From: a virus
Length of the DNA stretch: 64,000 nt
Virus record (IMG/VR): IMGVR_UViG_2974684452_000001
Coordinates: 1,828-65,827 of that record
Strand: one strand, 5' to 3'
Each line of letters starts with the position of its first letter. Within the stretch, counting starts at the first letter, position 1. Made by a program: the position numbers and the translations under genes. Below the pieces are notes generated by a model that made no database searches, had not been told where the DNA came from, and worked only from the letters and a program-made list of their open reading frames with translations. Shown in pieces: positions 17,950 through 36,378 of this stretch.

Positions 17950-18543
17950 ATGGCTGAGTTCGGCACCGGCGGCACCAAGATCGACCCGCCCAAGATCGCT
18001 CCGCAGGCGGAGCCGACCGGCGACCAGCTGGCACCGCCGCCTGACGATGACGACGACAACGTGATCGACGTCGAGACCGACAGCACCGCTGCCGCGATCG
18101 CCGACCTCGCGACCGACCACGCCGATGACCCGCGCGACACGGTGAAGGCGGAGGTGGTCGATTCCAACGACGTGCCCTCGTCCTCGTCGCCGGGAACCGC
18201 AGTGGCCCTGGCCGAGAAGTTCGACGTCGCCACGACCGGCGAGAAGTGGGACCACGACTTCCTCACCTTCGAGGGCGACCGGCTCGGCATCCGCGTCCCG
18301 ACCCGGCAGGCGCTGGCTGCATTCAGCCTCGCTACCGGCAAGTATGTCGACGTCGGCGTGAAGAACGACCTCACCGGCCTGTTCATCGCGCGGCACCTGT
18401 CGACGGAGAGCTACGGGCGGGTGTTCTCCCGGCTGATGGACCCCGACGACGAAGGGTACGACGTCGACACCGTGGGTGAGCTTTTCAACGCGATCGTCAC
18501 CGCGTCGCTGCAGCCCACCGAGGGTGACGACAAGAAGGCCTGA
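17950..18543 (+). CDS. Tail assembly chaperone
   Basis: Immediately upstream of the tape measure gene; no overlapping GT-type ORF follows. Confidence 0.65.
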   Translation: MAEFGTGGTKIDPPKIAPQAEPTGDQLAPPPDDDDDNVIDVETDSTAAAIADLATDHADDPRDTVKAEVVDSNDVPSSSSPGTAVALAEKFDVATTGEKWDHDFLTFEGDRLGIRVPTRQALAAFSLATGKYVDVGVKNDLTGLFIARHLSTESYGRVFSRLMDPDDEGYDVDTVGELFNAIVTASLQPTEGDDKKA

Positions 18544-18562: not shown

Positions 18563-24784
<6,222 letters not shown>

Positions 24785-34106: not shown

Positions 34107-34129
34107 GGCCATGCCTCGGAGTTTGACCT

Positions 34130-34498
34130 ATGGCCTTTGAGCCGCCTGCCGGGTACGTCGACTGCGAAAACGATGGCGACGCTGCGCCACCGAACGACGG
34201 CCCGTTCCGCGAGATCGACGTGCCGGGCGTCGGCATCATCCACGCCCGCCGCCCGCTGCCCAACGCGATCCCGGCGCTGAGCAGCGCGGCCAACTCGAAG
34301 GTGAGCGACCGGGCGCGCCTGGACTACCTCGACCTGTTCATCCTCAACCACCTCAAGCCGGGTGAGTTCGAGGAGATTCTGGCGCGGATGACCGACCCCG
34401 ATCTGGACATGCCGCCGGACTCGATGCTGCGCGTCAGCCGGGCGATCGCGACGGCGGGTACCGCCCGCCCTACACGGCGGTCATCAACCTCGCATTGA
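34130..34498 (+). CDS. Tail-assembly-chaperone paralogue (G-type)
   Basis: 17/56 ungapped identities with the 17950 gene product; ends ARPTRRSSTSH. Confidence 0.65.
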   Translation: MAFEPPAGYVDCENDGDAAPPNDGPFREIDVPGVGIIHARRPLPNAIPALSSAANSKVSDRARLDYLDLFILNHLKPGEFEEILARMTDPDLDMPPDSMLRVSRAIATAGTARPTRRSSTSH

Positions 34499-34815
34499 TG
34501 GCCGCGCACAACTGGCGAGGGCTGCGACTACGCCTGGCCGACAAGGGCTTCGCGAACCCGATGATGATGCCGTCGATGCACGCCGTGCTCGACGTGATCG
34601 AGCAGATGGGCCTCGAATCGGCGGTCCACGGTGCCAAGAAGGAGATCGAGGCCAAGAGCCGGATCGGCGCGTTCTACGACAAGCTGTACGCGCCCGACCC
34701 GACGGCCACGGTGATCAACGGCGACGGGTACCAGCCCGTCCCTGCCGGATTCGGCGACGACGAGGTGGAAGCCTCGTTCGACGCCTTCATGTCGGCGGTC
34801 AACGCCGGAGCCTGA
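34471..34815 (+). CDS. -1 frame extension (T-type) of the 34130 gene; listed ORF starts at 34495
   Basis: The -1 frame is open and GC3-rich from 34471 (YTAVINLALMAAHNW); there is no clear RBS before the ATG at 34498. Confidence 0.6.
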   Translation, partial: YTAVINLALMAAHNWRGLRLRLADKGFANPMMMPSMHAVLDVIEQMGLESAVHGAKKEIEAKSRIGAFYDKLYAPDPTATVINGDGYQPVPAGFGDDEVEASFDAFMSAVNAGA

Positions 34816-34837: not shown

Positions 34838-35251
34838 ATGGCTATCGGCAACGTCATGATCGACACGTCGCGGCCCGTCGGCTCCAAGCTCGATGACGAG
34901 ATGCAGGAGGAGGTGCGGGCACTCGCGCCCGGCATCCCGCCTGACGGCACGATCACCGAGGAAAAGCTGCACGACGGCGCGGCGACGAAGGACAAGATCG
35001 CGCCAGGGGCAGTGGACAAGACGCGCATCGCTCAGGGCGGCGTCGGCGCGGCGAACTACGAGGCCAAGTCGGTCGGCACCAGCGCGCTGGCCGACAACGC
35101 GGTCACCGCCGACCAGGCTGGGACGGGGGTTGTGACGGCCCACGACACCGCCGGTAACAAGATCACGCTCGACATCGTGCCGATCAGCACCGCCGCCTAT
35201 CAGCAGCTGGGCGCGAACGTGAACCCGAACGTCGCCTACTGGCTGTACTGA
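34838..35251 (+). CDS. Repeat-containing tail fibre-like protein
   Basis: Roughly 10-residue repeats (DGTITEEKLH, DGAATKDKIA, PGAVDKTRIA, DNAVTADQ). Confidence 0.6.
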   Translation: MAIGNVMIDTSRPVGSKLDDEMQEEVRALAPGIPPDGTITEEKLHDGAATKDKIAPGAVDKTRIAQGGVGAANYEAKSVGTSALADNAVTADQAGTGVVTAHDTAGNKITLDIVPISTAAYQQLGANVNPNVAYWLY

Positions 35252-36378
35252 TGCCTCAGCTGATCCTCCCCGGCGGCAAGCCGGTCACCGCCATCAAGGT
35301 CGGCACGACCGACTTCAAGCAGATTCGCATCGGCTCGACCCTCTACTGGTCGAAGGCGATGATCAGCGATGGGTTCGACCCCGACGGCCCGCTGCAGCGG
35401 TGGATCAACGAGCTTCGCAGCGGCGACCTCGGTGCGCTCTGCACCGACGTGACCGGCGTGCTGACGGACGGCCTGGGCAACGTGGTCGGCAGCACCGTAG
35501 CGTTTGTCGAGGGTGGTCTAAACGGCAGCGGCAAGCTGGTCGCCCAGACCGGGCAGAACCTCGCCGACGCCTACTGCGGGCTGTGGGGCGGCACCGCCGC
35601 GCCGGACGGCCTGATCGGTCTGGTCAACGGCATCCCGATCATCGGCGGGTTCCTCGCCGACTGGCTGCGGGGCGACATCGACATCGAGTCGATCATCGGC
35701 CAGATTCCCATCGTCGGCGAGATCGGTCGCCTGATCGGCCTGTTCCCCGACGTCGAGGGCAATATCCTCGATCCGCTCAACTTCGTGGTCGACGCCTTCG
35801 GCAACGTCATCGGCACGATCACCTGCGGCGAGTTCAAGCCGACCGGCGGCATCTTCGAGGGCATCTGCTTCCTGATCGGCGTCGTCGGCAACGCGGCGAA
35901 GATGATGATCCCCGACGGCCTGATGAGCCTCAACAAGCAGGTCAGCCGGATGCGTCACCCCGACCTGCTGCCGGGCGACGACGGCCACCTCGAAGTCCAG
36001 ATTGCCGAGGTCGGCTCGCCGAACTACGTCACTCAGGTCTACCGGCGCTACGCCAACGACAACAGCGGGGCGCGCGGCGTCGGCATGGACTTCCGCAACA
36101 GCCAGGTCTCGATCGTGCGCCGGGTCGCCGGAGCCGAGGTGCTGGTCAAGCCGAACCTGACCAGCTTCGGCCCGAGCGACACCTGCCGCCTGATCCAGAC
36201 CGGCAACCTGCACACCCTGGTCAAGAACGGCGATCCGGTCGGCGAGTGGAACGACGCGGCGGCGACGGCGGCGAAGGGCAGCGCCAACCGCAGCGTCGCC
36301 ATGTGGATGCAGGGCGCGAAGGAACTGACCGGCAGCCGCCTGTTCAGCCCGTCGCTCAACTACCTGGAAGCGGCCTAG
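35251..36378 (+). CDS. Minor tail / structural protein
   Basis: Amphipathic IPIIGG repeats, then a beta-rich C-terminal domain. Confidence 0.6.
   Translation: MPQLILPGGKPVTAIKVGTTDFKQIRIGSTLYWSKAMISDGFDPDGPLQRWINELRSGDLGALCTDVTGVLTDGLGNVVGSTVAFVEGGLNGSGKLVAQTGQNLADAYCGLWGGTAAPDGLIGLVNGIPIIGGFLADWLRGDIDIESIIGQIPIVGEIGRLIGLFPDVEGNILDPLNFVVDAFGNVIGTITCGEFKPTGGIFEGICFLIGVVGNAAKMMIPDGLMSLNKQVSRMRHPDLLPGDDGHLEVQIAEVGSPNYVTQVYRRYANDNSGARGVGMDFRNSQVSIVRRVAGAEVLVKPNLTSFGPSDTCRLIQTGNLHTLVKNGDPVGEWNDAAATAAKGSANRSVAMWMQGAKELTGSRLFSPSLNYLEAA

Follow-up and report, generated by a model that had tools for sequence, protein, structure and literature searches.

A candidate −1 frameshift at a C_CCU tetramer in a displaced tail assembly chaperone locus of Cluster-B-like mycobacteriophages

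We analysed a 64,000-nt stretch of viral DNA (the window; positions 1828-65827 of the 71.5-kb virus record IMGVR_UViG_2974684452_000001, renumbered from its first letter) and examined a pair of overlapping open reading frames (ORFs) at 34130-34815, the first of which encodes a tail assembly chaperone family protein and the second of which is very probably reached by a −1 frameshift. The source phage is a Cluster-B-like mycobacteriophage. Its nearest relatives are the subcluster-B5-like mycobacteriophages Acadian, Baee, and Reprobate, with ~77% nucleotide identity across the locus region. The locus contained the following features.

34118..34121, + strand: Shine-Dalgarno-like GGAG, 8 nt 5′ of the ORF A ATG, read from the sequence
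34130..34498, + strand: ORF A, the zero-frame short product of 122 aa, with Phage_TAC_16 across residues 3-114 and its stop TGA at 34496-34498
34468..34471, + strand: candidate slip site C_CCU, marked by the invariance of CCCTAC, by the extra base in fused homologues, and by its being a proven −1 tetramer
34472..34476, + strand: 5-nt spacer ACACG from slip site to hairpin, fixed in length and variable in sequence among relatives
34477..34505, + strand: hairpin, putative stimulator, with 5′ arm 34477-34487, loop 34488-34494, and 3′ arm 34495-34505
34471..34815, + strand: −1 frame after the predicted slip, a nine-codon linker YTAVINLAL (34471-34497) followed by the DUF7240 domain
34498..34815, + strand: ORF B in annotation style, from ATG 34498 to the stop at 34813-34815, with DUF7240 in the −1 frame

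The zero frame contained GCC CGC CCT at 34463-34471 and continued as ACA CGG CGG TCA TCA ACC TCG CAT to the TGA at 34496-34498. The −1 frame from 34471 read TAC ACG GCG GTC ATC AAC CTC GCA TTG ATG GCC... to the stop at 34813-34815, and upstream it was closed by a stop at 34363-34365. Joining 34130-34471 to 34471-34815 gave a conceptual fusion of 114 + 114 = 228 aa. The ORF A stop codon and ATG 34498 had one A in common (TGATG) and were both located inside the hairpin. ORF A was preceded by GGAG, and inspection of the sequence upstream of ATG 34498 found nothing resembling a Shine-Dalgarno sequence. G+C content at third codon positions (GC3) was 0.90 in ORF A, 0.50 in the eight-codon zero-frame tail, 0.89 in the nine-codon −1 linker, and 0.91 in ORF B, while the −1 frame upstream of the slip site had 0.54. 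The tail also used codons that were rare among the 7,997 codons of this phage that served as reference: ACA (0.9% of Thr), TCA (used twice; 1.5% of Ser), and CAT (6% of His). A preliminary description of this DNA, made from its letters alone, had reported the GCC CGC CCT stretch, the atypical tail running to 34498, the GC3-rich −1 frame to 34815 with no clear Shine-Dalgarno sequence, and the 228-aa length, all of which were confirmed. An independent assembly from the probable source reads (depth ~1560) agreed with the window in having CCCT with no indel.

ORF A matched Pfam PF23781 Phage_TAC_16 ('phage tail assembly chaperone protein') with E 2e-40 and 137.6 bits against a cut-off of 27, placing the short ORF in a tail assembly chaperone family, and phrog_915 with E 6e-53; its matches to PHROG chaperones were weak. 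ORF B matched PF23888 (DUF7240; E 5e-43), a domain on which a literature search found nothing. Both halves fell within phrog_941 (233 positions), ORF A at 2-117 and ORF B at 127-230, so single-chain homologues exist. Mycobacteriophage Dori gp35 (232 aa) has this arrangement, with Phage_TAC_16 at 1-117 and DUF7240 at 127-229 of one chain, and a search of a 5.8-billion-protein database with a fused homologue as query returned 14 fused protein clusters of 213-228 aa. A second Phage_TAC_16 protein is encoded next to the tape measure gene of the window, and we refer to that copy as the proximal paralogue and to ORF A as the distal one.

To place the window among its relatives we assembled 58 loci, consisting of six annotated phages, 50 IMG/VR contigs, and two distant phages (Jeon and SPI1), with IMG/VR and the phage collection as the diversity sample. 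With both halves as tblastn queries at 56 loci, ORF B was in the −1 frame relative to ORF A in 49 (split forms), in the same frame in 7 (fused forms), and in the +1 frame in none. At 49/49 split loci the downstream ORF thus overlapped ORF A in the −1 frame and would extend its product, and in the window it had no Shine-Dalgarno sequence of its own. Split forms all had exactly 26 nt between the ...GTARP end and the first ORF B residue, fused forms all had 27 nt, and no other indels occurred. Every split form read CGC CCT ACN, and CCCTAC was invariant in the 34 distinct split sequences. The Pro codon at this position was always CCT in split forms, which accounts for only 7.2% of the Pro codons of this phage. 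The slippery sequence at the frame junction was therefore conserved as C_CCU followed by AC in the 34 split sequences and Jeon, and as C_CCU_UUU in SPI1. The preliminary description had treated a non-conserved site as fatal to its proposal and had suggested checking the −1 frame among relatives; both proved conserved, and the linker matched that of the fused homologues. The split state spanned very divergent Mycobacterium, Gordonia, and Skermania phages and M. abscessus prophages, with both halves under purifying selection. A 157-nt plant-metagenome contig spanning window positions 34366-34522, including the slip site, differed by 9 substitutions and no indel and represents an environmental relative of this phage in split form.

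The fused forms read CGC CCC TAC (Dori), CGC CCG TAC (L034, L054), CGC CCC TAT (L038, L039), and AGG CCC TAC (L031) at the corresponding position. Two of the fused variants do not extend a homopolymer and so cannot be put down to sequencing error. A maximum-likelihood tree built from 46 distinct conceptual fusion proteins called for at least 3 changes to the fused state, each nested among split forms, and Fitch parsimony likewise counted at least 3 origins. Each origin consisted of one extra base at the proposed slip site, so a one-base insertion there gave viable phages at least three times. The junction of the fused proteins, GTARP-Y-x-A-V-[IM]-x-L-x-x, is what the frameshift is predicted to produce, and the split-form linker Y-x-A-V-I-x-L-x-x agreed with these proteins residue for residue. 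Dori gp35 and the 14 metagenomic clusters are orthologous to the pair in the window and carry the predicted GTARP-Y-x-AV... junction. Unlike the window, they are in frame through one extra base at the slip site, presumably make the long form only, and in most cases have a relaxed hairpin.

Variability among the 34 split sequences also changed phase at the slip site. Upstream, column entropy was 0.81 at zero-frame position 3 and 0.00 and 0.22 at positions 1 and 2. In the nine-codon linker the most variable position was position 3 of the −1 frame (0.76 vs 0.46 and 0.40), as it was in ORF B proper (0.95 vs 0.65 and 0.28), and the change of codon phase began at the T of CCT. Selection on the −1 frame therefore sets in at the slip site and not at the ATG. 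The zero-frame tail, by comparison, was free in both length and sequence, with endings that included T*, TRR*, TRRSSR*, TLPSSR*, and TRRSSTSH*.

A structure model was obtained with AlphaFold2 for a natural fusion (L031/P0001; 222 aa, 66% and 56% identical to the two halves in the window) from an input alignment of fused, A-only, and linker+B sequences. The model had a mean predicted local distance difference test score (pLDDT) of 89.7 and a predicted template modelling score (pTM) of 0.81. Residues 115-127 of P0001 (YSAVIQLALMAAH) formed one helix, so the nine linker residues and the annotated 'start' Met belong to the same secondary-structure element. Structure comparison with known chaperones, which the preliminary description had suggested, gave its best matches among predicted viral structures and only weak ones in the PDB. 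Foldseek found no PDB match to the fused model at E <= 0.001, and exhaustive alignment against PDB representatives gave weak matches with a best Z of 5.5. Over the N-terminal domain these comprised, among others, 2ob9, a tail assembly chaperone of HK97 (Z 3.6), and YqbN 3klu (Z 3.5), which are consistent with a chaperone fold and not decisive. The best matches among predicted viral structures covered both halves of 194-236-aa proteins named 'tail assembly chaperone' from Arthrobacter phage SilentRX and Gordonia phages Lilbeanie and Phendrix (E 2e-7 to 2e-3, template modelling score 0.33-0.57), which are probably the long frameshift products of those phages. When the −1 frame product was searched against a protein atlas, all leads stayed below threshold (Phage_Gp15 clusters, scores 0.84-0.86). 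The ESM Atlas model of ORF B begun at its annotated Met (34498-34812) was poor (pTM 0.18, pLDDT 0.55), and the DUF7240 region of the AlphaFold2 fusion model was confident (block-mean pLDDT 89-98, residues 111-190), a comparison that is only suggestive since the methods differ.

Five nucleotides after CCCU the window contained an 11-bp hairpin (34477-34487 with 34495-34505, 7-nt loop, z -2.6 to -3.2). In the split-form alignment the homologous helix of 12 pairs had 96.3% of cells paired, vs 21-62% with the partner slid by 1-3 columns, and RNAalifold predicted the same helix. Its covariation score was 0.261 vs 0.081 for shuffles, and 0/500 shuffles reached the observed score, figures that overstate independence and are not probabilities, as the compared sequences are related. 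Compensatory double changes occurred at 4 helix pairs. The pair 34479/34503 (alignment pair 20-44) was divided evenly between G-C and C-G (20 distinct split rows each), was never broken, and changed at least 7 times on the tree; each of its bases fills the third position of an Ala codon in the −1 frame. The hairpin evidence is robust in these recurrent compensatory flips at synonymous positions. The same pair was C·C in 3, A·C in 1, G·U in 1, and G-C in 1 of the six fused rows, making it mismatched in 4/6. Fused forms kept a mean of 9.0 of the 12 homologous pairs (minimum free energy -15.6 kcal/mol) vs 11.5 in split forms (-20.3 kcal/mol), which indicates that, Dori excepted, the constraint on the hairpin relaxes where frameshifting is unneeded. 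The Z_ZZN type of frameshift signal is accompanied by a downstream stimulatory structure, and here an 11-12 bp hairpin with covariation stood 5 nt away.

Other pairings in this region were considered. A possible pseudoknot joining the loop CCUCGC to GCGAGG (34515-34520) was dropped because, judged by eye, the complement was absent in most relatives. Pairing of the slip-site CGCCC with GGGCG ~47 nt downstream (alignment pairs 9-56 and 10-55) was without covariation and must melt under the ribosome. In the window, 34466-34470 can pair with 34517-34522 and so enclose the hairpin; the G-rich partner was GGGCG in most relatives and GAGGGC here, and this stretch is fixed by conserved W-R codons.

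The two distant relatives lacked a start codon from which the conserved beginning of ORF B could be made. In Jeon the motif was CGC CCT ACG, with the zero frame ending ...GTARPTLPSSASR* and the −1 frame reading YVAVVSIALTAATIWRSLR... The Jeon −1 frame contained no ATG, GTG, or TTG from the upstream stop to a Met 21 codons into the conserved domain, and the annotated gp35 starts at that internal Met, leaving out the invariant W-R motif. The Jeon hairpin was 15 bp long (-32.7 kcal/mol, z -4.0), with more compensatory changes from A-U to G-C. Skermania phage SPI1 read CGC CCT TTT CGG at the slip position, which is the canonical heptamer C_CCU_UUU, followed after 5 nt by a different and stronger stem (-35 kcal/mol, z -4.1), and lacked a start codon ahead of the conserved N-terminal region of the domain. 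In SPI1 (KR011061.1, L058, 562-625) the Tyr after the slip was replaced by Phe. The annotated Jeon gp35 (NC_070934.1, L057, 664-948) and SPI1 Orf47 (L058, 706-861) start at least 21 codons inside the DUF7240 domain because there is no start codon further 5′, and both gene calls are probably truncated halves of frameshift products. Closer to the window, ATG occupied the position equivalent to 34498 in 31/34 distinct split sequences, the others being Yago84 and L037 (ATC) and L036 (CTG).

From these comparative sequence data we consider it very likely that a programmed −1 frameshift at C_CCU 34468-34471 fuses the distal chaperone paralogue to ORF B. Most ribosomes translating ORF A would terminate at the TGA at 34496-98 and produce the 122-aa tail assembly chaperone. 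A minority would slip back one base with tRNA-Pro on CCU 34469-71, re-pairing on CCC 34468-70, with the T at 34471 re-read as the first base of a Tyr codon and the 11-bp hairpin that begins 5 nt downstream aiding the slip. The slipped ribosomes would then translate YTAVINLAL and the DUF7240 domain in the −1 frame, ending at 34815. Their product would be a 228-aa chaperone with a C-terminal extension, ...TARP-YTAVINLALMAAHNW, as an analogue of lambda gpGT, and its predicted junction peptide is ...TARPYTAVINLAL..., or also AIATAGTARPYTAVINLALMAAHNWR.

The signal has the form of a Z_ZZN motif, with the zero frame CGC CCU, the tetramer C_CCU, and cognate re-pairing on CCC. In E. coli, six Z_ZZN tetramers promote −1 frameshifting at 0.26-5.6% when a stimulator lies 5 nt downstream (Sharma 2014, PMC4066793), in the order A_AAG >> U_UUC > U_UUU > C_CCU = C_CCC > A_AAA, and the model of that study places the slipping tRNA in the A site, not in the P site. 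The preliminary description had proposed a P-site slip from CCU to CCC at a non-canonical site. The −1 shift at CGC CCT is strongly supported by the invariant slip site, the one-base natural fusions, the covarying hairpin, and the start-less relatives. The choice of the P site needs qualifying, as the slip may instead happen with tRNA-Pro in the A site, the sequence being compatible with both. The site is indeed a tetramer and not a canonical heptamer; it is not unprecedented, belonging to a known but rarely used type (PMC4066793). It resembles the Z_ZZN signals of IS3- and IS1-family transposases and of reporter constructs in its single-codon motif, in allowing cognate re-pairing from CCU to CCC, and in its structure 5 nt downstream. 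Natural insertion sequence (IS) tetramers use A_AAG, U_UUY, or A_AAA, with C_CCU not reported among natural IS elements (PMC4066793), and unlike the IS signals the one here has a simple hairpin as stimulator and occurs in a high-GC actinobacterial host.

Several points weigh against the frameshift or temper it. Fused Dori retains 11/12 homologous stem pairs, so the hairpin was not lost everywhere the frameshift became unnecessary, and the relatedness of the compared sequences limits the shuffle statistics as stated above. C_CCU is among the weaker E. coli tetramers, whose active six span the range given above (PMC4066793), and the host here is mycobacterial; a low slip efficiency would, by analogy, suit a GT-type product. 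The ORF A stop overlaps the ATG as TGATG, and termination-reinitiation could also make ORF B alone, the two routes not being mutually exclusive. The locus is not beside the tape measure gene, and a G/GT function is proposed by analogy. A search of sequencing runs turned up no RNA or proteomic data set for this phage.

The overlap of stop and start leads to the strongest competing explanation, that ORF A and ORF B are two separate genes, with ORF B made from ATG 34498 by termination-reinitiation and the hairpin and linker kept for another reason such as the tuning of reinitiation. The TGATG overlap occurs in the window and in many relatives, an ATG is present at this position in 31/34 distinct split sequences, and all GenBank records examined annotate two genes. 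Against this, ATG 34498 has no Shine-Dalgarno sequence and is buried in the 3′ arm of a stable stem, the Met falls mid-helix in the fused model, and the nine codons before it evolve as −1 coding sequence and match the fused homologues. Two separate genes would also leave the invariant rare CCT and the constant −1 relation unexplained. Yago84, L037, L036, Jeon, and SPI1 have no ATG there, and the absence of any start codon 5′ of the W-R motif in Jeon and SPI1 means that these distant lineages decide against independent initiation of ORF B. Independent initiation as the full source of the downstream protein, which the preliminary description had accepted in advance as fatal to its proposal, is counted against by the same two phages. 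We regard separate genes as unlikely; in phages that have the TGATG overlap, reinitiation may still yield some ORF B protein besides the fusion.

A frameshift is also favoured over fusion at the RNA level, in which RNA polymerase would slip on the C run and add one C, giving an in-frame mRNA like the Dori gene. The natural fused forms do carry one extra base at the C run, and the protein would be identical. Known cases of transcriptional slippage involve about six or more identical bases in a row, and the C run here is only three long. Slippage of the polymerase would also explain neither the covarying hairpin at the canonical 5-nt distance nor the switch of SPI1 to the ribosomal heptamer C_CCU_UUU, and we judge it highly improbable. 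Decay or mis-sequencing of an originally fused gene by a one-base deletion, with no recoding, accords with the existence of fused homologues that differ by a single base and is effectively refuted by the split state in 49/56 loci over very divergent lineages, in the same frame and with purifying selection on both halves, and by the read-derived contig (depth ~1560) that agrees with the window.

The candidate frameshift locus was not in the slot between the major tail protein and the tape measure gene where a G/GT pair would be expected. Two genes of the window that define that slot are given here.

17950..18543, + strand: proximal chaperone paralogue, 197 aa, with Phage_TAC_16 at residues 80-188
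18572..24784, + strand: tape measure protein gene, 2070 aa, assigned from the ORF list and its position after the chaperone, not by family search

The proximal paralogue matched PF23781 (E 3e-38) and PHROG 1118 'tail assembly chaperone' (E 3e-69). It ended ...LQPTEGDDKKA*, with the tape measure gene starting 28 nt later, and had no frameshift partner ORF. BLASTP aligned the proximal and distal paralogues over 24/78 identities (E 3e-7), and both are PF23781 members, upholding the similarity that the preliminary description had seen between the 34130 product and the chaperone adjacent to the tape measure. The proximal copy had an acidic, low-complexity N-terminal extension of ~80 residues (rich in D, E, T, and A) that was absent from the distal copy, and homology between the two stopped at the same ...P-T position as the distal frame shift. 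The distal locus was situated 16 kb past the proximal chaperone and 9.3 kb past the end of the tape measure gene, behind minor tail genes. All six genomes examined (the window and 5 others) contained both the proximal unshifted paralogue and the distal pair.

Lambda provides the reference for such a pair: Xu, Hendrix & Duda (2004) reportedly described the tail assembly chaperone frameshift of long-tailed double-stranded DNA phages (lambda gpG/gpGT) as conserved, as cited in PMC10885494. Like lambda G/GT, the distal locus has a short ORF in a chaperone family, a −1 shift near its 3′ end that would yield a predicted minor, C-terminally extended product, and a position within the tail gene block, and the fused-homologue model resembles ~200-aa actinophage tail assembly chaperones over both halves. 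Unlike lambda G/GT, it lies outside the interval from the major tail protein to the tape measure gene, an unshifted paralogue holds the canonical slot, and the tetramer C_CCU takes the place of a heptamer such as G_GGA_AAG. A chaperone made as a short and a frameshift-extended form is of a known kind, and what sets this one apart is the place, the unshifted paralogue in the canonical slot, and the tetramer slip site. Where the preliminary description had spoken of a displaced G/GT pair ~16 kb downstream, the frameshifted chaperone pair is supported, and functional equivalence to lambda G/GT is an analogy only.

The three permanently fused lineages imply that the distal locus can do without a short product of its own and suggest that the long form is its essential product. 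The proximal paralogue may then supply the short-form (G-like) function. It is conceivable, though we would not call it likely, that G and GT are split between two paralogous loci, with the proximal one providing an abundant short form and the distal one the long form, or that the distal pair chaperones the adjacent fibre-like proteins of 34838-36378 and not the tape measure. Either division of labour, if true, would be an undescribed organisation of tail assembly chaperoning, and in general the distal pair could serve another tail component than the tape measure. The stretch 34838-36378, directly 3′ of the locus, encoded a 137-aa protein matching the middle of tail-fibre phrog_892 (E 2e-40) and a 375-aa ORF, the counterparts of which carry the annotation minor tail protein in Acadian and Colbert. 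The distal chaperone pair might act on these proteins instead of the tape measure.

Few features of long-tailed phages are as conserved as the tail assembly chaperone frameshift, and Cluster B, with several hundred genomes, is routinely reported without it. [quoted passage not shown] Beyond these two announcements, we found no statement on a Cluster B frameshift in the comparative mycobacteriophage papers searched, and the PRFect paper does not discuss Cluster B. Both ORFs were called 'hypothetical protein' in every one of ~70 rows inspected of 519 matching phage records, including 2025 deposits, while UniRef calls some short forms 'Tail assembly chaperone'. If the frameshift is real, the Cluster B exception vanishes, and the frameshift would instead be displaced, driven by a minimal tetramer, and unannotated in >500 deposited genomes. 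It would offer a natural and phylogenetically replicated C_CCU signal with a covarying stimulator in a high-GC host, together with natural controls, namely lineages that exchanged the frameshift for an in-frame fusion and whose hairpin came under relaxed constraint. It would also be a testable case of two chaperone paralogues sharing G and GT roles, would correct gene calls such as the truncated starts of Jeon gp35 and SPI1 Orf47, and would give frameshift predictors a training case new to them. One existing annotation already takes in the coding potential of the linker without a frameshift call: in Mycobacterium phage Tres (KT365402.1; L003, 1456-1821) the start of the downstream gene was set at a GTG 15 nt 5′ of the Tyr codon, giving a 40-nt overlap with the chaperone gene.

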